Shown here: piece after piece, positions 11,596-53,692 of the stretch | How positions within the stretch are numbered: the first letter of the stretch is position 1 | Layout: every line of letters starts with the position of its first letter | Assembly: GCA_031414955.1 (NCBI GenBank) | Contig: JANOQV010000067.1 | Location: forward strand, 1 to 64,000 | From: Pedosphaera sp. | GTDB taxonomy: Bacteria; Verrucomicrobiota; Verrucomicrobiia; Limisphaerales; SIBH01 | Length of the DNA: 64,000 bases | Direction of reading: 5' to 3' | The notes under the pieces: generated by a model | The model's input: the letters and a program-made list of their open reading frames with translations, nothing else | Database searches by the model: none | Told to the model about the DNA's origin: nothing | Translations under genes and position numbers: made by a program

Positions 11596-12624
11596 TCAGA
11601 ACTTCAATTGGAGCAGCCCGACCTCCAGGGCCAGTGCCTCCTGCACGTTCGAGTTCAGTTGCCGCTGAAGCCGCTCCAGCACTCGGAGGTTGGCCGTGGC
11701 GGCGGAGGGAGTGGTGCGGGATGCCAGAGCCTGGGTGCCCACCTGTAGATTGGGAAAAGCCAGCAAATCGGCATTACCCAGCGACAGGAGCCACACATCA
11801 CGCAGCCAGAACTGAAGTCCGGTCAGGATTTCAGCCCGTTGCCGGCGATATTCGGCCTCAATGGCGGCAGTCAGTTCGTCTTCCCACTTTTCGCGCAGCT
11901 TCGGGTCCAGATCATCGTATTTCTCCAGCGGAGACCGGGCGGTCAGATCTGTCTCAATGCTCTCCTTCAAGCCGCTCAAACGGGTTAGCAGCACCGACAG
12001 CAAGCGATAACGGCTCAGGATCGAACCGCGTTCTGCCACCGCCGTGTCGTTGAATTGCTTCAACCAGCCCAGGAAGGACTCGTCCTGAAACCGTCCCCGT
12101 TCGCCGGCAAAACTCAGCCGCAAACAGCGCGAGAGAATGGTCTCCAGGATCTTGCCCGGCTCCGTCGAGAGAAGGATCAGCACCGACCGCGCCGGCGGTT
12201 CCTCCAGCGTCTTGAGGAATGCGTTCGCCGCCTGCGGGTTCAATCGGTCTGCGCCCACGATGACCGCGACTTTATATTCCGCCTCGGTGGGCTTCAGGAA
12301 AATCGTCTGCATCAGCTCCCGCACCTGGTCGATCAGGATGACCCGCGAACGCGATTCAGGTCGGACCCATTGCACGTCGGCATGCGCGCTGTTCTCGATC
12401 TTTCGGCAGGAGGCGCATTCGTCACAGCAATCCACGGCCGGGCCACCTGAGTTGGTGCTCCGCCGCTCGCAGTTCAACGTCTTGGCCAGGGTGCGCGCGA
12501 CCAATTCGAGATGGGCCAGGTCGTCCCCGGAGAAGAGGTAAGCGTGGCCCAAACGCTGCCGGGCGAGACTGCGCTGCAGCAGTTGCACGGCGTCTTCCTG
12601 CTGGGTGAACTGGGCGAAGGACAT
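11596..12624 (-). CDS. holB: DNA polymerase III delta-prime subunit
   Basis: HAYLFSG, zinc motif CDECASC, AANAFLKTLEEPP, TILSRC. Confidence 0.9.
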   Translation of the reverse strand: MSFAQFTQQEDAVQLLQRSLARQRLGHAYLFSGDDLAHLELVARTLAKTLNCERRSTNSGGPAVDCCDECASCRKIENSAHADVQWVRPESRSRVILIDQVRELMQTIFLKPTEAEYKVAVIVGADRLNPQAANAFLKTLEEPPARSVLILLSTEPGKILETILSRCLRLSFAGERGRFQDESFLGWLKQFNDTAVAERGSILSRYRLLSVLLTRLSGLKESIETDLTARSPLEKYDDLDPKLREKWEDELTAAIEAEYRRQRAEILTGLQFWLRDVWLLSLGNADLLAFPNLQVGTQALASRTTPSAATANLRVLERLQRQLNSNVQEALALEVGLLQLKF

Positions 12625-12630
12625 GCGGCT

Positions 12631-12816
12631 AAAACTCCAAACTCCAAACTCCAAACCCCAAAGAAACTTCAAATGCCAAACTCCAAGGCCGGTCTGCGCC
12701 CCGGCGATTCACCCTCCCCAGCCTGCGCCACGCTACCGCCAGGGTGGTGCGGCACCCCATTTGGAACTTGGAGTTTGGTGTTTCCCTGGGGCTTGGAGCT
12801 TGGTGCTTGGCGCTTT
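12631..12816. repeat. Inverted heptamer tandem-repeat element (CCAAACT arm / TTGGAGY arm) carrying mini-ORF 12820-12629 (-)
   Basis: aaactcc x3-4 at 12631-12687 and ttggagc/ttggtgc repeats at 12760-12816. Confidence 0.8.
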
Positions 12817-12819
12817 CCA

Positions 12820-13239
12820 TCAAGCCTCCTGCGCCGGCGGTTGCGCCCCTGGCATGTGCCGCACCAAGAGCGGTATGCTGCCGATATAATTTCCCGCCAC
12901 CGCGATGTCGATGCCGTATTGCCCGGCCCGCTCGAAGCGCAGTTGCTGGATGTTGATGATGAAATTGCGCGAGATGAAACTCGTGTCCTCCGGCACCGCC
13001 ACATCCACCGGGATGTCGATGCTCGGCATGACCAGCTTCCCGTCCTCATCCACGAAGTTGAGTTTAATCTCCTTGTGGCCCTCCTCCATCTTGCTGAAGA
13101 CGAGCCGCAGGGCGATGGAACACTGCGCATGCACGGCCGGCAGTTGACCCGCGTTGATGGTGTCAAACGTGCCGAGAATGTTCAGCTTGCCGTGAGAATC
13201 CGTCGCTGCGTCGCACAAAGCCGCGATTTGAATGTCCAT
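12820..13239 (-). CDS. Conserved hypothetical protein (DUF6941-like)
   Basis: ALCDAATDSHGKLNILGTFDTI N-terminus and FERAGQYGIDI C-terminal strand recalled for this family. Confidence 0.75.
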   Translation of the reverse strand: MDIQIAALCDAATDSHGKLNILGTFDTINAGQLPAVHAQCSIALRLVFSKMEEGHKEIKLNFVDEDGKLVMPSIDIPVDVAVPEDTSFISRNFIINIQQLRFERAGQYGIDIAVAGNYIGSIPLLVRHMPGAQPPAQEA

Positions 13240-13422
13240 ACCGGCGCGAGACTAGGCCGGGTTCCCCCAACATGAAACGCAAAAGGTGAACTGTTTCCCG
13301 TTCTGAACCCGCCACGTGCCGTCCGGCTTGAGCGATGTGTGATCGATGGATTGGGACATGGTCCTAGGATTCAACAACCCGATCCTGCGCTGTGTTCTAA
13401 TCGCCGAGGCCGGTGGTGTCCG

Positions 13423-13573
13423 CAGCTCCAAGGGCGCGGCATCTTTGTGGAACACGCCCGAAGCAGCTTCCCCAGCTCCGTCAGGAGCGACATCGTCCGC
13501 AGATGCCGCCCCGCTGGGGCTGGAAAGGATGTGGCTGGTGCTTCTACACAGATTTCGCCCCGAACGGGGCTGG
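13423..13573. repeat. Four-arm palindromic REP-like element
   Basis: Outer arms cagctccaagggcgcggcatctttgtggaa / ttctacacagatttcgccccgaacggggctg; inner arms cagctccgtcaggagcgacatc / gatgccgccccgctggggctg. Confidence 0.7.
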
Positions 13574-13728
13574 GCTGTCCCACCTCAAAACCTCCAAGCC
13601 CCCGCAATGGACAGCCACCGGCAGGTTTGATTCACTGCCCTCTGTGAAACCAAAGGCCGCACTGATCACTCTTCATGCACGATGCATCGCCTGTCGTGCG
13701 GTTCGATGACAATGTGAGGCAACAATAT

Positions 13729-14220: not shown

Positions 14221-14270
14221 CGTTGAGCTTAGCGCGTTAATTCCCCCCTCCGCCCGCCAGCCTTAGCGCT

Positions 14271-14348
14271 CTCCAGCGGTTGCACCTCGGCCAGTTCCTT
14301 GCCCGCTTCGGTGGCGCCGAGCTTGAGCAGGTGCTCGCCGCTCGGACG
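14271..14348 (-). pseudogene. Duplicated relic of the rmuC 3-prime end
   Basis: 78 bp with 4 mismatches to 14876-14953; translates RPSGEHLLKLGATEAGKELAEVQPLE. Confidence 0.9.
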
Positions 14349-14393
14349 GAAGGGCGGCTTGCGCGAGGGGATCAGGACGGATAATCTACCCGC

Positions 14394-21492: not shown

Positions 21493-21753
21493 ATGAAGAC
21501 GCTGACCGTCGCGCAGGCTAAGTCAAAGTTGGGCAAACTGGTGGACCAGGTTCATGCTGGCACGCCGATCATCCTGGTTCATAACGCCAAGCTGGTGAAG
21601 GTGGAACGCTACGTGCCCTTCGATCCGGCCGAGGACCGCCCGGAGTTGGAAGCGATGTTGTTGGAAGGCGTGCGCTCTCACTTCACACCCTACTCCGAGG
21701 ACGAAATGCAGAGCCTCCTCGATAAACTGCGGAGGAGGCAGCGCAAGAAGTGA
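21493..21753 (+). CDS. Phd/YefM-family antitoxin
   Basis: MKTLTVAQAKSKLGKLVDQVHAGTPIIL; overlaps toxin gene. Confidence 0.8.
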   Translation: MKTLTVAQAKSKLGKLVDQVHAGTPIILVHNAKLVKVERYVPFDPAEDRPELEAMLLEGVRSHFTPYSEDEMQSLLDKLRRRQRKK

Positions 21754-22091
21754 CGCTGGCCCTCCAAAAAGGCGAAGTCTTCAAACGCGACTTTGAATGG
21801 CAGGCCGGATGGTATCTGCGCCGCGCGGGCGATGAGATCGCCCAAGGATACCTCGATTGCTTGAATGAGTCGCTGCGGCTGCTGGTCGTTCATCCCGGCC
21901 TCGGTTTCGCCCGCCGCTATCGCCATCCTGAGCTCAGGGGGCTGCGCTCGTTTCCGGTCAACCGCCCCTTCCAACCACATCTGATTTTTTATCGCCACGA
22001 TTCCACCACGCTCTTTGCCGTCCGAGTAATCCACGGCGCGCGTGACCTGCCCCGTCGGTTGCTGGAGCCATCCGGAGATCACGATGACTAG
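21750..22091 (+). CDS. RelE/ParE-family toxin
   Basis: HPGLG, LRSFPV, HLIFYR, VRVIHGARDL motifs. Confidence 0.85.
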   Translation: MTLALQKGEVFKRDFEWQAGWYLRRAGDEIAQGYLDCLNESLRLLVVHPGLGFARRYRHPELRGLRSFPVNRPFQPHLIFYRHDSTTLFAVRVIHGARDLPRRLLEPSGDHDD

Positions 22092-22151
22092 CCATCCCGC
22101 CCGTCTTCACCATCAAGTCCATGCGGGTCGTGCGCTGGTGCGTGGTGCCGG

Positions 22152-22188
22152 TGGAATTTGGGGTTTGGAGTTTGGAGTTTGGAGTTTC
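22152..22188. repeat. Heptamer tandem repeat (TTTGGAG), single arm, inside mini-ORF 22084-22191
   Basis: ggaatttggggtttggagtttggagtttggagttt immediately before ATG 22192. Confidence 0.75.
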
Positions 22189-22191
22189 TAA

Positions 22192-24405
22192 ATGGGCTTC
22201 CTCAATCCATTGCTCCTCTTCGGCCTCGCGGCGGTCTCCGTGCCGATCATCATCCACCTGCTCAACCGGCGAAAATTCCAGAAGGTCGTGTGGGCGGCGA
22301 TGCGGTTCATCCAGACCAGCGTGGAGAAAAACCAGCGCCGGATGCGCATCGAGGACATGATTCTGCTCGCGCTGCGCTGCCTGCTGCTGGCGTTGCTGGC
22401 GTTGGCCCTGGCCCGGCCGGCCTTCCGAAACTCAGGCTCCAATTTCCTCGGCCAATCGAAGGCGACCGCCGTGCTCATTCTCGACAACTCGGCCAGCATG
22501 GGCATGAGCGACGGGACCGCGACGCGCTTCGAGAAGGCGAAGCAGGCGGCGGAACAGGCCCTCAACGGCATGCCCGCTGGCTCGGCCACCGCGGTGTTGC
22601 TCGCATCGGACATTGCGCAAGGCGCCATCGCCGAGCCGACGTTTGATCTCAATCTCGCGCGCAAAGTGATCCGCGAAGCGCCGCTGACCGACCGCGCCAC
22701 CGATTTGCTGCCGTCGCTCCAGCGCGCGCTCGACACGCTCAAGCAACGCATCGGCTTGCGGAAGGAGATTTACCTCATCACCGATGGCCAACTCGCCGGC
22801 TGGAAACAGATGACGGAGATCCAGAAGCTGCTCGAAAACTCGCAACGCGACATCCGCACGCATGTCGTGCTGGTGAGCGAGCATGAGGAGCGCAACCTGG
22901 CCGTGACGGAACTGCGCAACACCGGAGGGCTGACGCCGGTGAATCAACCGCTACGTTTCGAGGCCCGCGTGAGCAACTTCGGCCGCGAAGCCGTGAGCAA
23001 CGTGCGCGTGAGCCTGAACGTGGACAGCGAGCCACCCAGCGATGAATTCACCATCGACTCACTGCCCGTCGGCGGGAGCAAGAGCGTGTCGCTCTTCGCC
23101 AAAATTCGCGCCGAGGGCTTTCACTCCGTCGTCGCGCGCATTCCCGAGGATCGTCTGCCGGCGGATGACAAGCGCGCCCTGGCCGTGCGCGCCATCAAGG
23201 AAGTGCGCGTGTTATTGGTGGACGGCGATCCCGGTGCCGAGCCGCGCGACAGTGAAATCTTCTTCCTCCGTCACGCGCTCATCCCCGTGCCGGTGAGCGA
23301 GCAGCCGAATTACTTCGTCAAGGTGGCCCGCCTCGCTGCGCCTGAATTCCCGACCGCGCGGCTGGATGACTTCGACGCCGTGGTTCTGGCCAACGTCGCC
23401 GACTTGGCGGAGCCAGTGGCCAAAGGCTTGGAGCAATACGTCCGGCGGGGCGGGGGGCTGATGATCTTCTCCGGCAACCGTCTCAATCCCTCGTTCTACA
23501 ACGAGCAGTTGTCAGCCAAGCAGCACTTGTTGCCCGCGACCTTTGGTCCCATGCGCGGCGACGCCGAGCAGGACGTGAACTACTTCACGCTCCAGGATCG
23601 CGGGCTGGAGCACGGCATTGTCTCGCTGTGGAATGATCCGAACGCGGGCACACTATCCTCGGCGAGATTTTATCGCGCTTATGATTTGCTGCCGGTGACG
23701 AACGGAGCGCCGGCTTCCAGCACGGCGCAAGCAGGCGCGTCCTCCAGCAATGCCGTGCTGGAAGCCGGCGCTCCGCAAGTCGTCGCCAAGTTCAGCCACG
23801 GCACGCCCGCCATCGTGGAACACACCTTCGGCCTCGGGCGCGTGGTCATGTTTGCCAGCACGGCGGACACGGCCTGGAATGATTTCCCGGTCCGGCCCGC
23901 GTTTGTGCCGCTGCTGCATCGCACGCTCGGTGCGCTGGTCCAGCGACAGGACGAGGGCTTGAACGTGCGCGTCGGGCAAAAATTCGTGCGGCAGGTCGCC
24001 TCCGAACTGCTGGACAAGGAGGCGCGCGTCTTCAAGCCGCGCCAGACCGACGCCCTGCTCGAACAGCGCCGCATCGAACTGGTCAACGGCTGGCCCATGC
24101 TGCAATTCGAGGGCACCGATCTGGGCGGCATCTACGAAGTGGGCGTGGGTGACGCGCGCGGTGTGCTGCGCTTTGCGGCCCAAGCAGACGCGAACGAGTC
24201 GTCCCTCGACGAGCTTTCCGCCGAACAGAAAAAGCTCCTGAACGCCTCCGCCCACGTGGTCGAGTGGGCACCGGGGCTCTCGTTCAAAGACTCGATGCAG
24301 TTCGCAGGCAGCGGGGCCGAGTTCTGGCTGCCCATCGTGATCCTCGCCCTCCTCCTCGCGGGCGCGGAGACGTTTCTGGGCCAGTGGTTCAGCCGAAGCA
24401 AATGA
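22192..24405 (+). CDS. BatA-domain / vWA / CARDB-like membrane protein
   Basis: MGFLNPLLL...PIIIHLLNRR BatA N-terminus, LDNSASM MIDAS, ITDGQ, C-terminal TM. Confidence 0.88.
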   Translation: MGFLNPLLLFGLAAVSVPIIIHLLNRRKFQKVVWAAMRFIQTSVEKNQRRMRIEDMILLALRCLLLALLALALARPAFRNSGSNFLGQSKATAVLILDNSASMGMSDGTATRFEKAKQAAEQALNGMPAGSATAVLLASDIAQGAIAEPTFDLNLARKVIREAPLTDRATDLLPSLQRALDTLKQRIGLRKEIYLITDGQLAGWKQMTEIQKLLENSQRDIRTHVVLVSEHEERNLAVTELRNTGGLTPVNQPLRFEARVSNFGREAVSNVRVSLNVDSEPPSDEFTIDSLPVGGSKSVSLFAKIRAEGFHSVVARIPEDRLPADDKRALAVRAIKEVRVLLVDGDPGAEPRDSEIFFLRHALIPVPVSEQPNYFVKVARLAAPEFPTARLDDFDAVVLANVADLAEPVAKGLEQYVRRGGGLMIFSGNRLNPSFYNEQLSAKQHLLPATFGPMRGDAEQDVNYFTLQDRGLEHGIVSLWNDPNAGTLSSARFYRAYDLLPVTNGAPASSTAQAGASSSNAVLEAGAPQVVAKFSHGTPAIVEHTFGLGRVVMFASTADTAWNDFPVRPAFVPLLHRTLGALVQRQDEGLNVRVGQKFVRQVASELLDKEARVFKPRQTDALLEQRRIELVNGWPMLQFEGTDLGGIYEVGVGDARGVLRFAAQADANESSLDELSAEQKKLLNASAHVVEWAPGLSFKDSMQFAGSGAEFWLPIVILALLLAGAETFLGQWFSRSK

Positions 24406-24686
24406 AAGCTCCAAGCTCCAAACCCCAACCAACTTTCAACACTCAAGCTTCAACTTGGTGGTGTCGGTATGGTTTGAAGTCGCGGACTGGTCCGGGACGG
24501 AGCGCAAAAACTTCGCCCCGGAGCGCGGCTGTGCCCGTAGGGCCAGCCGCAGCACGCGAATTATGCCGGGCGCTCTCGATTTGCCAACGTGCTGCGGCTG
24601 GTCTTCGACACAGCCGCGCTCCAAGGGCGTGTCGAAGTTTGAAGGTTGGAGTTTTGTTGGAGTTTGGGATTTGGATTTTGGAATTT
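24405..24686. repeat. Inverted heptamer element with nested GGAG REP doublet
   Basis: aagctcc repeats 24405-24455; REP arms 24520-24557 / 24588-24622; ttggag/ttggat repeats 24638-24686. Confidence 0.8.
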
Positions 24687-24696
24687 CGCCGCGCGC

Positions 24697-27126
24697 ATGA
24701 CCGACTTCTTCCTCAAACTCCTCGGCGTGCCCATCACCGACGCTCTCGCCGTCAGCAAGACCTCGCTGGCGCTGCGCGGCGGCGTGCCGATGGGCTGGGT
24801 GTTCTTCGCTGCCATCGTCTTTGGGCTGCTTACCTGGTGGAGCTTCGCGAAGACCCCGCAGGCCATCAGCCGCGCGCGCAAGGTTTTGCTCACCGCGTTG
24901 CGTCTGGTGTTCTTCGCCCTCGTGCTCGGGTTGCTGTTGCGACCGATTCTCGCGCTAACAGTCGAGGGCAGCATCCGCCGCTCGCTGGTGGTGCTGGTGG
25001 ATGATTCCTCAAGCATGAACATCAAGGATCCGCGCCTCGACCCGGCGGACCAGAAGCGCGCCGCTCTGGCCCGCAACCTTCTCGATCCGACGAAGGGCTT
25101 GAGCCAGAACCTCGGAGCTGGTGCCGGCAAAGGCGTGGACCAACTCGCCCGTGTCGAAGTGGCGCGCGGCGCGCTCAAGAATCCGCGCCTGAATCTCTTG
25201 CCGCGACTCGAGAAAAACTTTGACCTCGACCCGTTTACATTTGGCCAGGGCGTGGCGCGGTTGCCGCAGCCCGAAACCAAGACCAACGAGTCGCGCAAAA
25301 TCGAGGACTACGTCTGGATCGACCAGCTCGCGCCGGCCAGTCCGCTCACGCCCATCGGCGACGCGTTGCGCGAAGTGTTGAACCGCAAGCGGGGCCAACC
25401 CCTCGCGGGCGTCGTTCTCGTCACCGACGGCGCGAACAACAGCGGTTCGCAGCCGCGTGAGGCCGCCGCGCTGCTGCGGGCCGAGGGCATCCCGCTTTAC
25501 GTCTATGGCGTCGGCATCACCTCGCCGCGCGACATCATCGTGGCCAACATCTTCGCGCCCGATGTGACCTTTGTGCGCGACGAAGTGACGGCCACGGTGC
25601 GCGTCCGCTCGCAAGGTTTGAGCGGGCACACGGCGCGGCTGAAGTTGCAACTCAACACCACCACCGTGGCCGAGAAGGAGATTCAGTTCGGCGCGGACGG
25701 CGAGCAGGTGATTCCAATGACTTTCACGCCGCAGAACCAGGGACAGTTTGAGTTGACCGCGTCCATCGAGCCGCGCGACGACGAGACGGTGAAGGAGAAC
25801 AACTCGGCGACGCACCAACTGCGCGTGGTGGACAGCCGCATTCGCGTGTTGCTGGCCGACCAGTCGCCGCGCTGGGAGTTCCGCTACCTGCAAGCCATGC
25901 TCCTGCGCGACCGGCGCGTGGACTTGAAGTGCTATCTCGTCGAGTCCGATCCGGCCATCGCGCGCGGTACGAACTCGCCTTACATCGACAGCTTCCCGGC
26001 GCGGCAGGACGACATCGCGAAATACGATCTCGTCATCTTCGGTGACATTGACCCGCGCAAGCTCACCCCGGGCCAGTTGGAAACGGTAAGCTACTTTGTC
26101 TCGGAACTGGGCGGCTCCTTCGTGCTGCTCGCCGGCAAGAAGTTCGCGCCGCACGCCTATCGCCGCACTGTGTTCGACCGCATGTTGCCGGTGGAGTTTG
26201 ACGCGCCTGCGGTCACCGCCACCGAGCCGGTGGCGGACAAACCAGTGAAGCTGGAACTCACTGCCGGCGGCCGCGCCAACCTGATGATGCGCCTCTCCGA
26301 TCGCGACGAGGAGAGTCTGGCGGTGTGGAAACAACTGCCGCCAGTTTATTGGGTGGCGAAGGTGTCGCGCCCGAAACCCGCGGCCGAAGTGCTGCTCGTC
26401 GATCCCGACCCCGGCAAGGAATCGCGTTTCGGCAAAATGCCTGTCGTCGCGATGCAGCAATACGGCCAGGGCCAGGTCATGTATGTCGGCACCGACAACA
26501 CCTGGCGTTGGCGCAAGAACTCGGGCGACTTCTATCACTCCGCCTTCTGGGGACAGATCGTCCAGCGCATGGCCATGCTGCACGTGCTCGGTGGCTCGAA
26601 GCGCACCCGGCTCTCGACCGACCGCAAGACTTACGTGACCGGCGAACGCGTGCAGGTCTTCGCGCGCTTGCAGACGGCGGGCGCGGAGCCATTGCAGGAT
26701 ACCACGGTGAAAGGCATCTACGGCCTGCGCACTGGCGGCCAACAGACGGAAGTGGTGCTGCGCGCCACGCCGGATCATCCCGGCCTGTATCGCGGCGAGT
26801 TCCTTGCGCCGCTCGCGGGCCAGTATCAGATCTACACGGAGCTGGACCTCGACGCGCCGGCGGATTTCACCGTCACGGAGCCGAAGTTCGAGTTTGGTGA
26901 AACGGCGATGAACGAGCCGTTGCTGCGCGACCTCGCGGTGACTACGGGAGGCGCGTTCTTTCGCGAGGAAGATTTGTTCAAACTGCCCGACACCATCGCG
27001 GCCAGGACCGAGCGCGTGAAGTCGCCGCTGGAAATCGAGCTGTGGTCATCGCCGCTTTATTTCATCCTGATGCTGCTGGTGCTGACCGGCGAATGGGTGC
27101 TGCGCAAGATGTCGTATTTGAAATGA
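24697..27126 (+). CDS. vWA and glutamine-amidotransferase-like domain membrane protein
   Basis: VDDSSSM MIDAS, VLVTDGANNSG, PRWEFRYL, TWRWR, C-terminal EWVLRK. Confidence 0.85.
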   Translation: MTDFFLKLLGVPITDALAVSKTSLALRGGVPMGWVFFAAIVFGLLTWWSFAKTPQAISRARKVLLTALRLVFFALVLGLLLRPILALTVEGSIRRSLVVLVDDSSSMNIKDPRLDPADQKRAALARNLLDPTKGLSQNLGAGAGKGVDQLARVEVARGALKNPRLNLLPRLEKNFDLDPFTFGQGVARLPQPETKTNESRKIEDYVWIDQLAPASPLTPIGDALREVLNRKRGQPLAGVVLVTDGANNSGSQPREAAALLRAEGIPLYVYGVGITSPRDIIVANIFAPDVTFVRDEVTATVRVRSQGLSGHTARLKLQLNTTTVAEKEIQFGADGEQVIPMTFTPQNQGQFELTASIEPRDDETVKENNSATHQLRVVDSRIRVLLADQSPRWEFRYLQAMLLRDRRVDLKCYLVESDPAIARGTNSPYIDSFPARQDDIAKYDLVIFGDIDPRKLTPGQLETVSYFVSELGGSFVLLAGKKFAPHAYRRTVFDRMLPVEFDAPAVTATEPVADKPVKLELTAGGRANLMMRLSDRDEESLAVWKQLPPVYWVAKVSRPKPAAEVLLVDPDPGKESRFGKMPVVAMQQYGQGQVMYVGTDNTWRWRKNSGDFYHSAFWGQIVQRMAMLHVLGGSKRTRLSTDRKTYVTGERVQVFARLQTAGAEPLQDTTVKGIYGLRTGGQQTEVVLRATPDHPGLYRGEFLAPLAGQYQIYTELDLDAPADFTVTEPKFEFGETAMNEPLLRDLAVTTGGAFFREEDLFKLPDTIAARTERVKSPLEIELWSSPLYFILMLLVLTGEWVLRKMSYLK

Positions 27127-27156
27127 AGGCGAGCGTGAGCAGAGTCGATGCGCCCC

Positions 27157-27184
27157 GGAGCGCGGCCTTCAGGCCGCTTCACCG
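27157..27184. repeat. GGAG REP arm (family A) within mini-ORF 27123-27284
   Basis: ggagcgcggccttcaggccgcttcaccg, nearly identical to the arm at 2-26. Confidence 0.75.
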
Positions 27185-27280
27185 TGATGACGGAGCGGCA
27201 GTTTGTGTGATTTCACCGCTGGTTGGTTTGCGGTCGCTTCAGCGCCGCTTTCAGACCATGCGCAGGGGCTGCCAATTGAA

Positions 27281-28966
27281 ATGATCATCGGACCTCCAAC
27301 CACCGAACCACGCCTCGCCCCAAGCGCCTTGCTCGCGGAGAAGCTCGCCGCCGTGCGCCGCAAGCAGGTGGGCGTCGCGGCGGGCACTGGTGCGGGCATG
27401 GTGCTGGGCGCGTTCGTCATCCTGATCGCGGCGGTGATGCTGCTCGACTGGTGGCTCGACTTGCGCATGGCCGTGCGCGTGGCCGGATTGCTCCTCTTCC
27501 TTGGCGTGCCGGCGGTTCTGGCCTGGCGTTACATCATCACGCCCCTTCGTCGCCAGCCGGATGACGACTCGGTGGCGCTGCGGGTCGAGAAGTCATTCCC
27601 GCAATTCCGCTCCCGGCTCATTTCCTCGATCCAATTTCCCCGGCCGAGTGGATTGCCGGAAGGCGCCGCGACCTCGCTCGTGCGCATGACCATGGCCGAG
27701 ACGGAGGAACTGGCGCGGCCACTCGACTTCACGGAAGTCATCCCTACGAAGGAACTGACCAAGGTGTCCGGCTGGGCCGTAGCGGTGCTGGCTCTCGGGC
27801 TGTTCTCGTTCCTTTACGGCGGCGAGGTGAGCCGCGATTTGCTCAAGCGCGCGTTCCTTTCCTCGACGCTCGTGCCGCGTCACACCCGCGTGGAAGTCGT
27901 CACCGGCGACACGCGCATCGGGCGCGGCGACGCCCTCCGCATCGAGGCCCTGGCGCGCGGCGTGGTGCCGAAGGCCGGCAAGCTGTTCGTGAAAACTTCC
28001 GGCAAGCGCACGCAGGAATATCCGCTCGACCGCGACAAGAACGGCCGGTTCGTCCGTGCGCTGGAGAACGTGCAACAGGAGTTCACTTACACGGTCCGGC
28101 TGAACGACGGCGTGAGCCGCGAGCATCGCATCACCGTCGTGCCGCGTCCGAGCGTGGCCATGATCCAGTGCGAGCAGACTTTTCCGGCTTACACGGGCTT
28201 GCCCGTCGCCCGGCGCTCGCTGGGTGATCTCACCCTGCTCGCCGGCAGCAAGCTCTCCCTCGCCGTCACCGCCACGCACGACATCAAGAAAGCCTCCATC
28301 CGCCTCGTGGGCCTGAGCAACGACGTGCCCATGCAAATCAGCGCGCAGAATCCGCGCGAGCTGCGCGGCCAGTTTGACATTCCCGCGAAAGGCCTGTCCG
28401 GTTTCGCCGTGGACATGGTGGATCAGAACGACATGAAGTCGCTCGACTCGGCGGTCTATCGCATCGACGTCGTGCCCGATCGCGCGCCCAAGATTCGCAT
28501 CGTCTATCCCGACCGCCGCGAGGAACTCGTCACGCGCCAGGCTGTGCAGCCGATTGGCTTTGAGGCTAGCGACGATTTCCGCATCGCCCTCGCGCGGTTG
28601 CGCTACCGCGTGGGCGAGTCCGAGGAGGCCGAGATCAAAACCATCGAACTCGATCTGGGCACGAATGCGGTGAAGGACTTGAAGAACCGTTACGAGTGGA
28701 GCATCCGTGACTTCCAGCCGCCGCTCGCCGAAGGCACGCGGGTCGAGTTCTGGATCGAGATGCAGGACAACAACGACGTGACCGGTCCTGGCCTTGGGAC
28801 CACGGAGCACCAACTCCTGCGCGTGGTAAGCGAGAACGAGAAGCGCGCCGACTTGCTCAACCGCGCGGGTGATTTCATCGGCACCATCAGCGACGTGGCG
28901 GGCGATCAGGAGAAGCTCAACGCCAATCTTGGCGTGCTCATCATGGAGAAGTCCAAACCGCGTTGA
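27281..28966 (+). CDS. DUF4175-like membrane protein of the BatA cluster
   Basis: Three N-terminal TMs, ALRVEKSFPQFRSRLISSIQF, Ig-like domains, DRAPKI, DDFRI. Confidence 0.75.
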   Translation: MIIGPPTTEPRLAPSALLAEKLAAVRRKQVGVAAGTGAGMVLGAFVILIAAVMLLDWWLDLRMAVRVAGLLLFLGVPAVLAWRYIITPLRRQPDDDSVALRVEKSFPQFRSRLISSIQFPRPSGLPEGAATSLVRMTMAETEELARPLDFTEVIPTKELTKVSGWAVAVLALGLFSFLYGGEVSRDLLKRAFLSSTLVPRHTRVEVVTGDTRIGRGDALRIEALARGVVPKAGKLFVKTSGKRTQEYPLDRDKNGRFVRALENVQQEFTYTVRLNDGVSREHRITVVPRPSVAMIQCEQTFPAYTGLPVARRSLGDLTLLAGSKLSLAVTATHDIKKASIRLVGLSNDVPMQISAQNPRELRGQFDIPAKGLSGFAVDMVDQNDMKSLDSAVYRIDVVPDRAPKIRIVYPDRREELVTRQAVQPIGFEASDDFRIALARLRYRVGESEEAEIKTIELDLGTNAVKDLKNRYEWSIRDFQPPLAEGTRVEFWIEMQDNNDVTGPGLGTTEHQLLRVVSENEKRADLLNRAGDFIGTISDVAGDQEKLNANLGVLIMEKSKPR

Positions 28967-43817: not shown

Positions 43818-45595
43818 AAGCAAAATCTCTTATCGTCCTGATTACGGTTGGCGCGAGCGCCGCTGGCACGGGCTGGTTTGCCGCCAAACAATTCGGCGAC
43901 GCCAAACCCGCCGCGAGTTCCAGCACCAGGAGAATCCTCTACTACCAAAGCCCGATGCACCCGTGGATCACCTCCGACAAGGCGGGGCGCTGCACGATCT
44001 GCGGCATGAAGCTGGAGCCGGTCTTTGAAGGCGAGCGCGGCTTCGGCGGGATCGAGGGCGTGGTGATGCTCGGCTCGAACAGCGTCCAGGTGATTAACGT
44101 GCAGACCGAAGTGGTCACGAACCGTGTGCTCGCGCGCACGCTGAAGGTCGCTGGCGTGATCGAGGACGACGACACACGGCATCGCCGGATGTCGGCTTAC
44201 GCGGACGGGCGCATCGAGAAGTTGTTCGTGAATCATCTTGGAGCCGAAGTGGTTGAAGGCCAGCCGCTGGCCGTGCTCTACAGCCCGGCGCTGCTCGCGA
44301 CTGAGAGCGAGTATCTCACCCTGCTTCGACAAGTCTCGCCAGATGGCTTGTCCGCCACCGTGCGGCAGGAGCGCGCGCGGCTGGTCGAAGCCGCAGCCCA
44401 GCGGCTGAAACGGCTGGGTTATTCCGACGCGCAACTTGCCGCGCTGGCGAAGAAAGATGCCTCTGATGCACGCACGGAGATTCTCTCGTCCATGACCGGC
44501 ACGGTGGTGTTGCGCAACGTGTACGAGGGGCAGTACGTGAAGGAGGGCGAGCTGCTCTTTGAAATCGCTGACTTCGGCACCATGTGGTTTCAGTTCGATG
44601 CCTACGAACGTGACTTGGGCGGGTTGAACGCCGGCCAGGTTGTGGAAGTCACCAGCAGTTCCTTGCCTGGGAAAACTCTTTCGGCACCGATTAAATTCAT
44701 CGATCCAAATCTCAACGAGATGACGCGCAGCGCCAGGGTGCGCGTGGAACTGGAGAACCCGATGGTGGATGACGGCGGGCGCAAGCGCCGCCTGCTTTAC
44801 CATCGCCTCTTCGCCGAAGGGACCGTGAAGCTGCAATCGGCTGCGGTGCTGACGGTGCCGCGCAGCGCGGTGCTGTCCGCCGGGCAGCCGGTGGTCTATG
44901 TCGAGGCTGGTTCGGGAGCCTACGAGCAGCGCCCGGTGAAGCTCGGCCAGCGCGGCGATGATTATTGGGAAGTGCTCAGCGGAGTGCAGGCTGGCGAGCG
45001 TGTGGTGACGACCGGCAATCTGCTTATCGACGCCCAGGCGCAACTGAACGCCAGCACCATTTCCCTGCCTGGGTCTGGCCCGCTGGCGCCGGGGCAATCC
45101 TCCACCATGACGAACCAGGGGCTGATGAAACCCGCCCCTCCCGCAACGACTGAAACGCAGCTTGCCGTGGCCACGGAGTTCTTCACCGTGACCAGTGAGT
45201 TGGGAGCCGCGCTGGCTGCTGATTCGCTTCCGCTCTTCAACGAACGGGTGCCGCAGGTCCATGCCATGATTCCCAAGTTGATCGAGGCGTTTGGTGAAAC
45301 CAAGTCGCTGCGCCCGACGCTGGCGAAGTTCGAGCAGTCCGGCCATCTCGAAACGGCCAAAGACCTCACCCAGGCGCGCAAGGAATTTCTGCCTTTCAGC
45401 ATGGCGACGGCAGAACTGGCGGCGCAGTTGCGCACGCAGCCGGGTGCGCCAGCCGTGAAGATTTTCAACTGCCCGATGGTGAACCGCGCGGTGCCCGGCG
45501 CGGACAAGAACGGGCGCTGGGTGCAGATGGAAGGTCCGTTGCGTAATCCATACTTCGGCGCGCAGATGCTGGAGTGCGGGAGTGAAGTGAAATGA
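43814..45595 (+). CDS. cusB: CusB-like RND periplasmic adaptor with N-terminal metal-binding and C-terminal DUF3347-like domains
   Basis: YYQSPMHP...CTICGMKL, GRIEKL, YSPALL, CPM...NPYFGAQMLECG. Confidence 0.85.
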   Translation: MKAKSLIVLITVGASAAGTGWFAAKQFGDAKPAASSSTRRILYYQSPMHPWITSDKAGRCTICGMKLEPVFEGERGFGGIEGVVMLGSNSVQVINVQTEVVTNRVLARTLKVAGVIEDDDTRHRRMSAYADGRIEKLFVNHLGAEVVEGQPLAVLYSPALLATESEYLTLLRQVSPDGLSATVRQERARLVEAAAQRLKRLGYSDAQLAALAKKDASDARTEILSSMTGTVVLRNVYEGQYVKEGELLFEIADFGTMWFQFDAYERDLGGLNAGQVVEVTSSSLPGKTLSAPIKFIDPNLNEMTRSARVRVELENPMVDDGGRKRRLLYHRLFAEGTVKLQSAAVLTVPRSAVLSAGQPVVYVEAGSGAYEQRPVKLGQRGDDYWEVLSGVQAGERVVTTGNLLIDAQAQLNASTISLPGSGPLAPGQSSTMTNQGLMKPAPPATTETQLAVATEFFTVTSELGAALAADSLPLFNERVPQVHAMIPKLIEAFGETKSLRPTLAKFEQSGHLETAKDLTQARKEFLPFSMATAELAAQLRTQPGAPAVKIFNCPMVNRAVPGADKNGRWVQMEGPLRNPYFGAQMLECGSEVK

Positions 45596-45596
45596 A

Positions 45597-45730
45597 AACA
45601 CCAAGATCCAAGATCCAAGATCCAGAGAAACACCAAGCACCAAGATCCGATCGCGGAGCGGTCGCCGGTGGGCCGGTGGTGCTTGGATCTTGGAGCTTTT
45701 CTGGATCTTGGATCTTGGATCTTGGATCTT
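45597..45730. repeat. Inverted heptamer element (CCAAGAT)n / (ATCTTGG)n carrying mini-ORF 45592-45738
   Basis: ccaagat x3 at 45601 and gatcttg x3-4 at 45704-45730. Confidence 0.85.
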
Positions 45731-45734
45731 TCTT

Positions 45735-48700
45735 ATGATCAACCGCCTCATCGAATGGTCGCTGCGCAACCGCTTCCTCGTGGTGGTGGCCGCGTTGTTC
45801 CTCATCGGTTGGGGCATCCGCTCTGTATATCGCACGCCGGTGGATGCCATCCCCGACCTGAGCGAGAACCAGGTGATCGTGTTTGCCGACTGGATGGGGC
45901 GCAGTCCGCAGGAGGTCGAGGATCAGGTCACGTATCCGCTCTCGGTGAACTTGCAGGGACTGGCGGGCGTGAACACGGTGCGAGCGAACTCGATGTTCGG
46001 CTTCTCGCTCATCACGATCATCTTCGAGGACAAGATTGACAACTACTTCGCCCGGTCACGCGTGCTGGAACGGCTGAATTATCTCGGCAACGTGCTGCCA
46101 GCCGGAGTGACGCCGCAGCTCGGGCCGGACGCGACGGGCTTGGGGTGGGTTTATCAGTACTATCTCGACGTCGATCCAAAGACGGTCGCACCGGCCCAGA
46201 CGGTGCGAATCGCCGGGCCTGCTTCTCCCTCTCCCCTCAACGGGGAGAGGGCTGGGGTGAGGGGTGGGAAGGACGAGACGCGCCCGCAAGGTCAAGCCGC
46301 TACGACCGAACCACCCCTCACCCTTACCCTCTCCCCGTGGAGGGGAGAGGGGACCGGAGCTGTCGCGGTGGCTCAGAGTCCGGGTGAGTCGCGAATCGGC
46401 TACGACCTCGGCCAGTTGCGCGCGGTGCAGGACTGGTTCATTCGCTACCAACTCAACTCTGTGCCGGGCGTGGCGGAAGTGGCGAGCATCGGCGGCTTTG
46501 TCCGGCAGTATCAGATCGAAGTTTCCTCGGTGAAGATGCGCGTGGCGAACGTGTCATTGCAGGAAGTGATGCGCGCGGTCAGCGAAAACAACCTGAACGT
46601 CGGGGGCAAGGTCATCGAGGAGAACGGCATGGAGTTCGTGGTGCGCGGCCTGGGGCTGATCAACAAGGTCAGTGATCTGGAGAACATCGTCCTGACCGAG
46701 ACGAACGGGACGCCCGTTTATCTGCGCGATGTGGCCGAGATCCAGATTGGCGGGGACTTCCGGCGCGGCACGCTCGACGTGAACGGGCGCGAAGTGGTCG
46801 GCGGCATCGTCGTGATGCGCACGGGCGAGAATGCGCGCGATGTCATCGCCCGGGTGAAGGAGAAGGTGGCGCAGATTTCCCCCAGCCTGCCGCCCGGCGT
46901 GACCATCAAGTCCTTCTACGACCGCAGCGACTTAATCGAGCGAACTCTCGCCACGCTGCGGCACTCGCTTTGGGAGGAAATCATTCTCGTGACGCTGGCG
47001 CACATCCTCTTCCTTTGGCACTTCCGCAGCATCCTGATTGTCACACTGCCGCTGCCGATTTCGATTCTGGTGTCCTTTGTCCTGATGAAGCAGTTCGGCA
47101 TCACCTCGAACATCATGTCGCTCTCTGGCATCGCCATCGCCATCGGCGTGCTGGTGGATGCGGCGATTGTGATGACGGAAAATGTGATCCGGAGGTGTGA
47201 GCAGGCGGAGGAGGAAAAGGGGAAAGGAATCAGCAAGGCGGTAATCGGTGAAGCACAGGCAGACGCGAAGTCGCGAAGCCCGGAGGGCTTCAATTTGAAT
47301 AGCCCCGGGTGCAACCCGGGGAATAGTGCGCGCCTCACTCCCGCCGAAACCTGGCAAGTCGTCCTGGATGCTTCAAAGCAAGTCGGGCGGCCCATCTTCT
47401 TCGCCATGGTGATCATCATCCTGGCGTTCATCCCGGTGTTCGCGCTGGAGGGGCAGTCGGGGAAACTGTTTCACCCGCTGGCTTTCACGAAGACGTTTGC
47501 GATGGCGGGCGCGACCTTGCTGGCGGTGACGCTGGTGCCGGTGCTTTGCACGCTGATGGTGCGCGGGCCGTTTCACTCCGAGGATCGCAACTGGATCATG
47601 CGTGTGCTGCTGCGCATCTACGACCCGGTGCTGGACTGGGCGCTCGGGCATCGCAAAACTGTTTTGTCCGGTGCGGTCATGTTGCTGGTGAGCGCGTTGG
47701 TCATCGCGATTGGATTGCCACGTCCATGGCTGCAACAACTTGACACCTTCAACATTCAACCCGCCACTCGCCTCCTCTCCGGCATCGGCTCCGAGTTTAT
47801 GCCGCCGCTCAACGAAGGTTCCATGCTCTTCATGCCGGTGTTGCTGCCCAGCACTTCGCTCACCGAGGTGAAGCGCATCATGGCCTGGCAAGACACGGTG
47901 ATCTCCCAGACGCCCGAGGTCGCTTCCGTTGGCGGCAAACTTGGGCGCAGCGAAACGGCCACCGACCCCGCGCCCGTCGAGATGATCGAGACGACGATCA
48001 TGTTGAAGCCCGAGTTCCTGGTCACGAACCGCGCGCTGCTCGGCTTCATCAAGATTCCGCGCACCATCCGGAATCCCGAGTGGCGTCCGGACATGACGAT
48101 GGACAAGTTGCGGGCCGAACTTTCCGAGAAGCTCACGCAGGTGCCGGGCTACGTGCCGGGCTTTCTCCAGCCGATTGAGAACCGGCTCCTGATGTTGAGC
48201 ACGGGCATTCGCGCGCAGGTGGGCGTGAAGATTCTGGGCGACAATCTCGACGAGCTTCAGGCTAAGGCCTTCGAGGTCGAGCGCGTGGTGCGCGCGGTCG
48301 AAGGAGCCACCGGCGTCGCGTCCTCGCGCATGCAAGGCAAACCTTACGTCGAGATCGAAGTGGACCGCGTGGCCATGTCACGGTTCGGCCTGCGCGCGCA
48401 GGAGGTGCTGGACGTGGTCGAGGCCGGGCTGGGTGGAAAGAATGTCACCACGACCATCGAGGGCCGTCAGCGTTTCCCCATTCAGGTCCGGCTCCAGCGC
48501 GGCGAGCGCGATGACATTGAGCGCCTCGCCGAAGTGCTGGTGGCCACGCCCTCGGGCAAGTTTGTTCCTCTCGGTCAGGTGGCGAGAATTCGCCGGACGT
48601 CTGGCGCGAGTGAGATTGCCAGCGAGAACGGACGGCTGCGCGTCTTCGTGCAGGCCAACGTGCAGGGGCGCGATCTCGGTGGGTTCATGAAGGAGCTTCA

Positions 48701-49355: not shown

Positions 49356-49497
49356 TGAAGTTTGGCGCTGCGATCCCGGCAGCCGAACACGCTCCGGCGG
49401 CACCTCTCAATTTTCCAGCGGTCGTGGTCGGATGCGCCTACTCCGCTCTGTCCGGCAGGTTCTTCATTGCCCGCGGCGGGCAACTGCGGTTTGATCC

Positions 49498-51050: not shown

Positions 51051-51191
51051 GCCGAGTGCGGACCTCCGGTCTGCATGTTCGTCCGGCGAGGCACCTGCGG
51101 AACGCCGGGTTTGACCCGGGCCGGGAAGTGTTTGGCCCTCCCCTGTGTCTTGCTCATTGCCTCGCGCCAGTTCGACCGATTTAATCCCCTC

Positions 51192-52076
51192 GTGCCGTTC
51201 CGCAAAATAGCCCTCGTGGGAGTCGGCTTGCTCGGTGGATCGCTGGCCCTGGCGATTCGCGAACGCAAGCTGGCCCCGGTCGTGCGCGGTTATGTTCGAC
51301 GGGCAACTTCCATCCTTGAATGCGAGCAGGCCGGCCTGCGGGACTTCGCCACCCTTGATCTCGCCGAGGCCGTGCGTGACGCCGATCTGGTGGTCCTCTG
51401 CACTCCGCTGGCGCAGATGGGCGAACTTGCGGCGCGCATGGTGCCGGCCCTGAAGCCCGGTGCCATCGTCACCGATGTTGGCAGCGTCAAGGGCAGCGTG
51501 GTCGCGGAACTGGAACCAATCCTCGCTCCGACCGGTGCCCATTTTATCGGCGCGCATCCCATGGCGGGGGGCGAGAAAATGGGCGTGCTCGCGGCGCGCT
51601 CTGACTTGTTCGACCACGCCGTCTGTATTCTTACGCCCACGCCGCACACCCACGCGGCGGCTCTCCAACAATCCGAGGTCTTCTGGCGCGCGCTTGGCAC
51701 CCGGCTGCTGACCCTGGCTCCGCAACGGCACGATGAGTTGGTGGCGCGGTGCAGCCACCTGCCGCACGCCTTGGCGGCGGGCTTGGCCAACTATGTCCTC
51801 GATTCGGCGCATCCGGCGGAGCAACCGCAGCTCTGTGCCGCCGGTTTTCGTGACACCACGCGCATCGCCTCCGGTTCCCCGGAGATGTGGCGCGACATCG
51901 CGGTGGCCAATCGCGAGCAGCTAGCCCGCGCGCTGGGAGTGTTCATCGGGGATTTGCAGAAGCTCCAGGGTGCCATCGCTGCGGGTGACGCCGAGGCCGT
52001 CGAGAAGTTTTTCACCACGGCCAAGCTGCGCCGTGACGAGTGGTCGGCGCAAGCGGCTTCGCCCTCGCCGGAATGA
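51192..52076 (+). CDS. tyrA: Prephenate/arogenate dehydrogenase
   Basis: GVGLLGGS, TDVGSVK, HPMAGGEK, SHLPH, GFRDTTRIA. Confidence 0.9.
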   Translation: MPFRKIALVGVGLLGGSLALAIRERKLAPVVRGYVRRATSILECEQAGLRDFATLDLAEAVRDADLVVLCTPLAQMGELAARMVPALKPGAIVTDVGSVKGSVVAELEPILAPTGAHFIGAHPMAGGEKMGVLAARSDLFDHAVCILTPTPHTHAAALQQSEVFWRALGTRLLTLAPQRHDELVARCSHLPHALAAGLANYVLDSAHPAEQPQLCAAGFRDTTRIASGSPEMWRDIAVANREQLARALGVFIGDLQKLQGAIAAGDAEAVEKFFTTAKLRRDEWSAQAASPSPE

Positions 52077-52210
52077 AGATCCAAGATCCAAGATCCAAGA
52101 TCCAGGGAAGCACCAAACCCCAAGCTCCAAAGAGCGTCCGGCGCGGGTTCGTTTGGAGCTTGCTGCTTGAAGTTTCTCTGGAGCTTGGAGCCTGGAGCTT
52201 GGAGCTTTCC
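52076..52210. repeat. Inverted heptamer element carrying mini-ORF 52073-52213
   Basis: ccaagat x3 on the left and ttggagc/ctggagc x4 on the right. Confidence 0.85.
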
Positions 52211-52216
52211 TGAAAA

Positions 52217-53692
52217 ATGCTTCGTGACCTCATTGAAATCGTCCCGCTCTCCGCTCCGGTTCACGCCGAGATCACCGTGCCCGGCTCCAAGAGCATCACT
52301 AATCGCGCGCTCATCCTGGCCGCGCTGGCCGATGGCGAGGTGCGGCTCGAGGGCGCGCTTTGGAGCGAGGACACGCAGGTGATGGTCGATGGCCTGCAAC
52401 GCCTCGGCTTCGAGGTGAAAGTGGAGCCGGACCCGAATGAGTTCTGCAACCGCACCATCACCGTGCGCGGGCGCGGCGGAGAAATTCCCAAGTCAGGCAC
52501 GGCGGAAAAGCCCCTGGAGTTGTTCGTGGGCAATGCCGGCACGGCGGCGCGTTTTCTCTCCGCGATGGTCTGCCTCGGCCGCGGCGTGTATCGCCTGAGC
52601 GGTGTGCCGCGCATGCACGAGCGCCCGCAGGCGGCGCTGTTCCGCGCGTTGCGCGAACTGGGTTATCGGGTGGACTCGGCGAATGACAAATTGCCGGTGG
52701 TGATTCAAGGCACGGGGCCGCGCGCCGGGAAATGCCGCGTGAGCATCGAAGCCAGCTCGCAATTCGCCAGCGCGCTCCTGCTCTGCGCCGCCCGCGGCGG
52801 CTGGCAAATCGAAGTCATGGGCGAGAACGCCGACGAGTCGCCCTACGTCGCAATGACGTCGGAGATGGTGAGGGTGTTCCCGAAGAAAGGCGGACATTTT
52901 CAAATCGAGCCGGATGCGTCGAGCGGGAGTTATTTTTGGGCGGCCGGATTAGTTGCAACATTGTTCCCCAATGCTTCGCACGAGAACACGGGCCCCTTCA
53001 TTACAAGGTGGCATCCGACCTCATCAGTTCCTCTCCCGGTTCTTGTTCGCAGTTGGCCATCGTCGCAATGGCAAATCGATGCGGCCTTCTTCGTGTTTCT
53101 GGGGTTACTCACGGCTCACGATCCCATGACCGAAGAGGAACGCGCTGACATGGAAAGGAATTACGCCGAACAACATGGCCTAAAGTGGCGTGAGCGGGCG
53201 CAACGGGATTACGAAGAATGGGAGGCCAGGCATTACGCCGAGAATGGCGTGCCAGAGATTTCACGAGTTGATGATCTAGGCGATAGCATTATGACAGCGA
53301 TCGTGACAGCGTCGCTAGGTGCCTGCCGTTTGCGCTTCACCGACCTCGGCCGCCTCCGCGTTCAAGAGTGCGAGCGCGTCATCGCCTTGCGCACCGAACT
53401 GAGCAAGTGCGGCGCAAAGGTCATCGAGACCGGGGATGCCTTGGAAGTTTTCCCCTCGCAACTTCACGGCGCGGAGATCGAAACCTACGACGACCATCGC
53501 ATGGCCATGTGTTTCGCGGTGCTGGGCTTGAAGGTGCCGGGCCTCAAGCTGCGCCACCCGGCCTGCGTGAAGAAGACGTTCCCGAACTTCTTCCAGAAGC
53601 TCGCCGCCGCCCCGCCGCACGGCCTCGGGGTCACGATTCTTGACGGCCACACCGGCCGCAAGCTGTCGCACGACGAGCTGTTCGCGGATTGA
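52217..53692 (+). CDS. aroA: EPSP synthase with atypical internal segment
   Basis: PGSKSITNRAL, GNAGTAARF, SSQFASALL, YDDHRMAM, CVKKTFP. Confidence 0.92.
   Translation: MLRDLIEIVPLSAPVHAEITVPGSKSITNRALILAALADGEVRLEGALWSEDTQVMVDGLQRLGFEVKVEPDPNEFCNRTITVRGRGGEIPKSGTAEKPLELFVGNAGTAARFLSAMVCLGRGVYRLSGVPRMHERPQAALFRALRELGYRVDSANDKLPVVIQGTGPRAGKCRVSIEASSQFASALLLCAARGGWQIEVMGENADESPYVAMTSEMVRVFPKKGGHFQIEPDASSGSYFWAAGLVATLFPNASHENTGPFITRWHPTSSVPLPVLVRSWPSSQWQIDAAFFVFLGLLTAHDPMTEEERADMERNYAEQHGLKWRERAQRDYEEWEARHYAENGVPEISRVDDLGDSIMTAIVTASLGACRLRFTDLGRLRVQECERVIALRTELSKCGAKVIETGDALEVFPSQLHGAEIETYDDHRMAMCFAVLGLKVPGLKLRHPACVKKTFPNFFQKLAAAPPHGLGVTILDGHTGRKLSHDELFAD

Follow-up and report, generated by a model that had tools for sequence, protein, structure and literature searches.

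Five spacers between co-oriented genes of one bacterial contig are filled with repeats, and each of them holds a short open reading frame (ORF) that starts at the upstream stop codon and ends at the downstream start codon. Why should an intergenic repeat be readable in just this way? The contig is JANOQV010000067.1 from the genome of an uncultured Pedosphaera sp. (6.55 Mb, 313 contigs, 62% G+C; working label G000), and the window analysed here is its positions 1 to 64,000. A first-pass annotation had proposed that such repeats enter translationally coupled junctions and persist only if a ribosome can be relayed across them. The frame of these mini-ORFs over the whole genome, a strand asymmetry and the empty sites of relatives strongly support this proposal at the level of sequence, and it is probable that selection keeps those inserts across which ribosomes can be relayed, translation itself being deduced from the frames.

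The repeats belong for the most part to one family of tandem 7-nucleotide (7-nt) units. A pattern scan of the genome returned 323 heptamer arms, which gave 110 left–right pairs lying at most 250 nt apart and 103 unpaired arms. Paired elements are mostly ~120–190 nt long, with a variable loop between two arms built of 7-nt units, and their stems have a median of −80 kcal/mol over ~188 nt. By position, 94 of them lie between co-oriented genes, 11 between divergent genes, 1 between convergent genes and 4 at contig edges. The junctions of the genome as a whole number 2687 co-oriented, 576 convergent and 574 divergent, from which the elements differ both in their co-oriented share (94 of 106 classifiable) and in the single convergent case (P 5e-6 and 6e-7).

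For the frame test, a tight set was chosen by distance alone: 60 of the 94 co-oriented elements have the upstream stop and the downstream start each within 45 nt of the arms. An ATG enters the element at 39 of these junctions, and the ORF that it opens stops within −8 to +10 nt of the downstream start in 35 of the 39, versus 2 of the 78 other frames (12.3 expected, exact P 6e-15). Bridging is far above chance. The result holds for other stop windows: 31 of the 39 still bridge at −4 to +4, and the excess is also stable at −20 to +20. No stop interrupts the ATG frame within the element in 38 of 39 elements, and the other frames are open in 46 of 78. GTGA stands at the stop in 14 of the 21 tight junctions without an entering ATG, and of those 14 junctions 9 bridge (3.3 expected). 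Altogether 45 of the 60 tight junctions and 51 of the 94 co-oriented elements are bridged; the bridging stop overlaps the next start by 4 nt (ATGA or GTGA) in 26 of the 45 and lies between −5 and +8 in the rest. Elements with a single arm bridge in 6 of 14 cases (2.7 expected), with some starts miscalled, and this count carries no weight in the argument.

A shared frame could be inherited from one master copy or belong to the end of the repeat itself. The length of the elements modulo 3 is evenly spread (12/10/14 of 36), and no two of the 45 bridged spacers share more than 80% identity (median 62%); therefore the frame was not inherited from a single master copy, and clonal copies are rejected as its source. 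Moreover, an ATG lies outside the left arm on the sense strand in 38 of 60 elements, while the mirror-image CAT lies outside the right arm in 5 of 60; this asymmetry speaks against an ATG that belongs intrinsically to the palindromic ends, and that reading is rejected. The ATG overlaps the upstream stop in 29 of the 60, a share resembling that of close-packed junctions (258/585), and an ATG at the stop is rarer elsewhere (168/1109 wider co-oriented junctions; 104/1152 stops of convergent genes). Geometry, frame bias and strand bias are all read directly from the genome.

The five junctions of the window, whose mini-ORFs are open exactly with the starts, stops and spacings first described, show how varied the inserts are. 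The gene labels given to them (holB, parE, cusB/cusA, tyrA and aroA) agree with family scans. At junction (a), on the minus strand, a mini-ORF of 63 amino acids (aa; 12629..12820) overlaps the stop of a DUF6941 gene (12820..13239, minus strand, family scan) as TGATG, and its TAG lies 4 nt before the ATG of a holB-like gene for DNA polymerase III delta' (11596..12624, minus strand; a match below the curated cut-off whose start matches relatives). The insert is a heptamer tandem-inverse-repeat hairpin (12631..12815) with a CCAAG-type left arm and a TTGGAG-type right arm, folding at −113 kcal/mol (z −4.98 versus shuffles). The other four junctions are on the plus strand. At (b), a 35-aa mini-ORF (22084..22191) runs from the end of a ParE-family toxin gene (21750..22091, family scan) to a TAA that abuts ATG 22192 of a BatA/VWA-domain gene (22192..24405, family scan). 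At (c), which is flanked by two genes of one BatA/VWA cluster, a 53-aa mini-ORF (27123..27284) has ATGA at both ends, overlapping the VWA-domain gene (24697..27126) and the next gene, which begins at 27281. At (d), a 48-aa mini-ORF (45592..45738) has ATGA on the stop of the cusB-type gene (43814–45595, family scan) and ATGA on the cusA start (45735), around a heptamer hairpin at 45596–45731 (z −8.17). At (e), the 46-aa mini-ORF (52073..52213) has ATGA on the stop (52076) of tyrA, a prephenate dehydrogenase gene by family scan, and a TGA 3 nt before the aroA ATG (52217); its heptamer hairpin spans 52076–52207 (z −3.97).

All five spacers had been described as filled with heptamers. This holds for (a), (d) and (e), which are complete two-armed hairpins that fold far better than shuffles; (b) has a right arm alone (22152–22187), and (c) holds another repeat, a REP-like (repetitive extragenic palindrome) insert without heptamers, with a 9-nt direct repeat at its ends and a core motif found 18 times in the genome. 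As a whole, the insert of (c) folds no better than shuffles (z −0.11). The heptamers had also been called free of stop codons in every frame, which is true of the canonical units, but variant units introduce TGA into both the (a) and the (e) arms, though not in the frame of the mini-ORF. A sixth heptamer element (hairpin 24405–24686), between the BatA/VWA-domain gene and the gene upstream of (c), had been overlooked. An Rfam scan of the window gave no match at gathering score.

Relatives carry the same junctions in both states. Thirty relatives were searched per junction. Among 20 cusB–cusA loci, 5 have a 4-nt ATGA or GTGA overlap, 2 have a gap of 4–6 nt, and two (L043, L044) hold a different palindrome with a bridging ORF. 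The DUF6941–holB pair is kept in 15 of 30 loci; 12 of these are empty, five of them from the same genus with a 3-nt gap, one (L062) carries a different heptamer family with a bridging ORF, and one (L064) has an 82-nt gap without a start. At the parE–BatA junction, three same-genus loci (L196, L198, L200) are without the repeat, and the parE stop overlaps the ATG by 1 nt. Junction (c) is an ATGA overlap in three relatives (L088, L093, L095) and a 6-nt gap in two, and in five filled relatives the ORFs end at −2, −2, +4, −13 and −3. The 25 tyrA–aroA junctions comprise 12 empty (−4 to 17 nt) and 13 filled ones, including that of this genome. The sixth junction is empty in 6 relatives, and 4 of its 5 filled forms bridge. 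Empty and filled sites are therefore observed for all five junctions and for the sixth, and the empty ATGA junctions that had been proposed as a check in relatives do exist, as overlaps at (c) and (d) among other tight forms. Judged from this comparison of loci rather than from a tree, the junctions were probably tight ancestrally and then invaded repeatedly by different repeats.

Beside junction (b), a Phd/YefM-like antitoxin gene (21493–21753) pairs with the toxin gene, and the pair (21493–22091) stands directly before the BatA gene here and likewise in three same-genus relatives; in those three, an upstream operon gene precedes parDE that is missing at that place in this genome. The parDE module was considered as cargo between two arms and rejected, as no left arm lies upstream and relatives have parDE there without the repeat.

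Filled and empty sites also bear on whether the bridging frame is a by-product of insertion, in which a duplicated ATGA or GTGA target would leave a start codon at the left end and a stop codon at the right end with stop-free heptamers between them, so that no selection is needed. The 9-nt direct repeat of (c) and the ATGA at both ends of (d), each with an ATGA overlap as its empty form, would fit such an origin, and filled sites of mycobacterial interspersed repetitive units (MIRUs) carry 4-nt direct repeats (PMC3184786). A duplication, however, does not set the frame where element length modulo 3 is evenly spread, as it is here. DTGA...ATGA ends are found in only 15 of the 45 bridged cases, and when the ATGA...ATGA cases are removed, 25 of 27 elements still bridge (8.3 expected). 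Longer site-specific direct repeats show no genome-wide excess over shuffled pairs (2.45 versus 2.36, P 0.28), in a test that is blind to a shared ATGA. At (a), the 3-nt empty site holds neither the ATG nor the TAG of the mini-ORF. Target-site duplication as the general or sole cause is thus largely refuted and, as a full account, we regard it as improbable; it may still account for the origin of some inserts, (c) and (d) for example, though not for their frame.

Bridging extends beyond heptamers and beyond one genome. As a comparison set we took 822 other co-oriented spacers of 60–330 nt, and those with an ATG at the stop were divided by fold strength. Strongly folded spacers bridge in 15 of 26 cases (6.0 expected) and weakly folded ones in 19 of 64 (11.0 expected); among those that bridge are several palindrome families unrelated to each other, a few heptamer elements that the scan had missed and possibly some small genuine genes. 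A replicate was made on 60 regions around the first-listed pattern matches of two related genomes (G008 and G004), rather than on whole genomes. It gave 37 pairs, 29 co-oriented, 7 divergent and 1 convergent, with 15 tight; 8 of the 9 tight elements with an ATG bridge (3.0 expected, P 0.001).

From these patterns we infer mobility, translation, re-initiation and selection as the cause. Non-autonomous hairpin repeats would insert into tight, translationally coupled operon junctions, with other palindrome families acting alike. Coupling is strongest at spacings of −4 to +3 and falls off over tens of nucleotides (PMC12548453). The bridged spacers add 117–307 nt between genes, and an insert would part the upstream stop from the downstream start and wrap the gap in a strong stem. 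It would be tolerated if translation can start at the upstream stop in a frame that stays open through the stem and ends at the downstream start. A terminating ribosome could then re-initiate, melt the hairpin, terminate at or near the downstream ATG and re-initiate again, in two rounds of termination–reinitiation with the mini-ORF peptide as a by-product. Inserts without such a frame would be purged or confined to uncoupled gaps.

The mini-ORF may instead be translated to cover the insert, shielding it from Rho and nucleases or melting the stem for a fresh ribosome, without handover of the same ribosome. The genome has a rho gene that scores above the curated cut-off, the stems are as strong as given above, several ORFs in relatives stop 11–16 nt short of the start, and a review treats RNA unfolding as an open alternative to scanning (PMC12548453). 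Yet shielding needs no stop on the start codon, and 26 of the 45 bridging stops overlap it exactly, as 31 of the 39 ATG-frame ORFs stop within −4 to +4. We consider shielding in place of a relay unlikely. The two models are not mutually exclusive, and shielding from Rho may contribute alongside the relay.

According to the first-pass annotation, a Shine–Dalgarno-like (SD-like) GGAG or GGAT 7–12 nt before the next start could be hidden by the left arm, making the element a hairpin switch. As a regulated attenuator, translation of the mini-ORF would open the SD-hiding stem and tune the downstream genes to a signal. These motifs do lie at that distance in four of the five junctions, (a), (b), (d) and (e), and the presence of the left arm lowers the predicted unpaired probability of the downstream start region from 0.55 to 0.37 (33 elements). 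Genome-wide, they are a minority of the tight elements (GGAG/GAGG/AGGA in 10 of 60 and GGAT in 9 of 60, at −16 to −4), in a genome that is itself SD-poor: an SD-like motif precedes 374 of 4137 called genes (~9%). A 16S rRNA 3′ end, from which the anti-SD could be read, was looked for in the assembly and not recognised. In relatives, these junctions are vacant or filled by unrelated inserts, which argues against a conserved control element, and the flanking genes in the window have no common function. Nothing indicates regulation, a switch appears very improbable, and SD sequestration is weakly supported as a general rule, since SD-like motifs occur in few elements.

A functional role of the mini-ORF peptides as small proteins seems more remote still. 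They have a basic N-terminal half and a hydrophobic C-terminal half, and their composition is alike in any frame, because the 7-nt units cycle through the frames; the hydrophobic half appears to serve in leaders when it is fused. However, the three peptides examined have no Pfam match, the same junctions are taken up elsewhere by unrelated repeats whose peptides are unrelated too, and ending at the next start is nothing that a peptide with a function of its own would require.

Several observations weigh against the relay. The 60 tight elements were selected by their distance to both genes, and genes were called with a self-trained caller (~4900 genes) whose starts were compared with relatives only at the window junctions. 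Among the tight junctions, 15 of 60 are unbridged, 3 of these being in-frame fusions, and the 34 looser elements bridge in 4 cases by mini-ORF and in 2 by read-through of the upstream gene (6/34). Counted over all 94 co-oriented elements, 61 have a continuous translatable path and 33 have none by these tests. Of the 13 filled tyrA–aroA junctions, 4 bridge strictly, another 4 have ORFs that end at −11 to −16, and the remaining 5 are unbridged. Medium-folded spacers of the comparison set show no excess (6 of 48, 6.7 expected), the GTG starts of the replicate, read directly, bridge in 1 of 4 cases, and related genomes are non-independent samples. The sixth element in the window (24402..24700, plus strand) is itself an exception: ATG 24402 overlaps the upstream stop, but its ORF overruns to 25004, 308 nt into the next gene. 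A second repeat (REP) is nested inside this hairpin, and an internal 45-aa ORF (24563–24700) ends on the next ATGA; a recent frame shift brought about by the nested REP, or else an indel in the assembly, may lie behind this.

Nesting of this kind also marks a subclass of heptamer elements that lie within a second palindrome of the GACGCATC...GATGCGTC type, which we take to be a CGTC-tagged REP. They stand far from genes, often in divergent gaps (7 of the 11 divergent elements are nested in another REP), and bridge in 0 of 12 cases, for example C105:66332, C193:19928 and C311:4282. Other heptamer array families of the genome have units of the AATGACG, AACCCTC, AACTCTC and AAGGTCC types.

Where the frame does not stop, it can run into the next gene. 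Ten elements (3 tight, 7 loose) do so, at C56:41425 and C65:55635 (L323, L324) and eight further sites, and ~8 of the 10 fusions look by eye like export signals, in which the left arm gives basic residues and the right arm a hydrophobic run, followed by an A-x-A-like site. Two fusions were followed through relatives, with leaders judged by a hydropathy window (the most hydrophobic 11 residues) rather than by a signal-peptide predictor. For an M23 peptidase, of which 20 of 28 matches were fetched, right-arm heptamers overlap these 11 residues in 7 of the 12 genomes from the genus and in none of the 8 others, and the leaders of the five genus members that lack the element are ordinary, at ~17–22 residues. 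For a prenyltransferase-fold protein, the overlap occurs in 8 of 11 genus genomes (two more look degenerate) and 0 of 4 others. These data suggest that the hydrophobic core of the next gene's signal peptide can come from the right arm when the frame runs in. If the fused proteins are exported, the element must be translated, which would be indirect support for the relay. Another element-fused gene (L325:120-926, on C231) has a weak, below-cut-off match to the Pfam ATLF (zinc metalloprotease-like) domain. In addition, 35 sites inside called genes carry short in-frame heptamer runs, 34 of them in the CCAA (left-arm) sense, which encode hydrophilic S/K/V/Q/P stretches; they are possibly tolerated remnants of in-frame insertions.

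The origin of the elements may lie in larger cassettes. Four TIGR02436/PF05635 four-helix-bundle genes occur in the genome, each flanked, by eye, by inverted heptamer arrays. One TIGR02436 gene (L004) uses the same heptamer arms as the mini-elements: it starts with an ATG 2 nt past the upstream stop, its N-terminus is read from the left arm, and after the cassette gene a 57-aa mini-ORF continues across a mini-element to ATGA. The closest relatives of the cassette protein are mostly from Verrucomicrobiota. Among the best 80 of 134 relatives, a left arm is found in 58, a right arm in 57 and both in 47, with the left arm inside the ORF in 45; a downstream start could be placed in 45, the start is at the stop in 40, and 25 first ORFs bridge (9.7 expected). 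The arms of cassettes and mini-elements are alike, whereas mini-elements carry no gene, and the latter are probably emptied derivatives of the four-helix-bundle cassettes, judging from the arms. We found no role for the four-helix-bundle protein in mobility in print. REP-associated tyrosine transposases (RAYTs), whose genes are flanked by the same repeat in REP/REPIN systems, and GxxExxY genes were rejected as partners of the CCAA family, since no CCAA arms lie within 500 nt of the 12 Y1 transposase (PF01797) matches or near the 4 GxxExxY genes. Three GxxExxY genes of this genome are flanked by other inverted tandem arrays, and the cusB–cusA junction of one relative (L048, G009:C9), equivalent to (d), holds a full cassette with a gene bearing the GxxExxY motif, by eye, between inverted arms.

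The first-pass annotation knew of no description of such relays, but their principle is already in print: both MIRUs and the short ORFs of attC sites have been described in this way (PMC12548453, PMC3184786, PMC8876359). MIRUs (Supply et al. 1997, via reviews) are dispersed, 40–100 bp mycobacterial repeats of operon junctions that insert at start codons; their ORF overlaps the neighbouring genes with coupling at −4 nt, filled sites carry tetranucleotide direct repeats, and the proposed effect on expression is small (PMC12548453, PMC3184786). Our elements, compared with MIRUs by description rather than by sequence alignment, are likewise dispersed between co-oriented genes, with an ORF that overlaps or abuts both neighbours and with empty and filled sites. 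The direct-repeat motif flanking MIRUs is DTGA, whereas 30 of our 45 bridged spacers are without DTGA...ATGA ends, and the position and kind of start and stop vary. The heptamer hairpins are also long and variable, unlike MIRUs, and several unrelated families converge on the same geometry.

In integrons, a palindromic hairpin that lies between co-transcribed genes keeps the following gene from being translated; a short ORF in attC, or ORF-11/17 at attI1, relieves the block by termination–reinitiation (Jacquier et al. 2009 and others, via review; PMC8876359). The mechanism is the one proposed here, and the comparison is one of mechanism: attC sites are integrase recombination sites of gene cassettes, whereas ~110 heptamer elements lie between ordinary chromosomal operon genes. 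Hence, the heptamer elements work like a MIRU or an attC short ORF, but by size, host and direct-repeat rule they are not MIRUs.

Other repeats share parts of this architecture. Inverted pairs of GGGAATC heptamers in Xanthomonas (PMC4692102) and TAACTGA repeats in Beggiatoaceae (PMC4679880) are intergenic, with 7-nt tandem units near the stops and starts of co-oriented genes, but the units differ, and the accessible parts of both papers discuss them as G-quadruplexes or for protein binding and not as bridging ORFs. Forward TAACTGA repeats carry stops in all frames, and the word coupling does not appear in the accessible part of PMC4679880. Hairpins of ~100–200 nt, some fused in frame to genes, are known among MITEs (miniature inverted-repeat transposable elements) and REPs with coding capacity: ERIC elements (enterobacterial repetitive intergenic consensus), Rickettsia palindromic elements (RPE), Yersinia RU-2 and GTAG/CGTC REPs (PMC2229807, PMC3733652). 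An RU-2 copy fused in YPO1552 forms part of a predicted signal peptide (PMC2229807), and REPs, which are also known in Verrucomicrobia, favour convergent as well as co-oriented gaps at varying distance from the downstream gene (PMC3733652). Heptamer elements, by comparison, are convergent in 1 of 106 cases and tight at both ends. With MITEs, the inserts of (a), (d) and (e) share terminal inverted repeats and a long stem, their arms being inverted copies.

The relay principle is thus known from MIRUs and attC. In the literature within our reach, which left out most subscription papers, we found no published description of the heptamer family, of its four-helix-bundle link, of relay ORFs across REP or heptamer inserts, of the frame test, or of the in-frame use of a heptamer arm as a signal-peptide core.

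In the reviews, the MIRU idea rests on inspection of one repeat family. The present data add a genome-wide frame test, a strand control, a replicate and a natural series of empty and filled sites with unrelated palindromes. A broader picture, which we offer tentatively as possible rather than likely, is that heptamer hairpins and four-helix-bundle cassettes form an undescribed mobile system for coupled stop/start junctions, whose arms, readable in any frame, relay ribosomes or, when fused, replace signal peptides, and that the relay is a general filter on palindromic repeats of any family that survive in operons.

A 2025 review leaves open whether coupling works by re-initiation or by RNA unfolding (PMC12548453), and the spread of stop positions found here (+4 dominant, −5 to +8) offers a natural spacing series for this question. 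Relay ORFs would also explain the spurious-looking ORFs of 40–65 aa and the odd N-terminal extensions seen in annotations, and the fusions indicate repeat DNA as a source of signal peptides. For the organism itself, these results provide sequence-level evidence that translational coupling may be under selection across the ordinary operons of an SD-poor bacterium.

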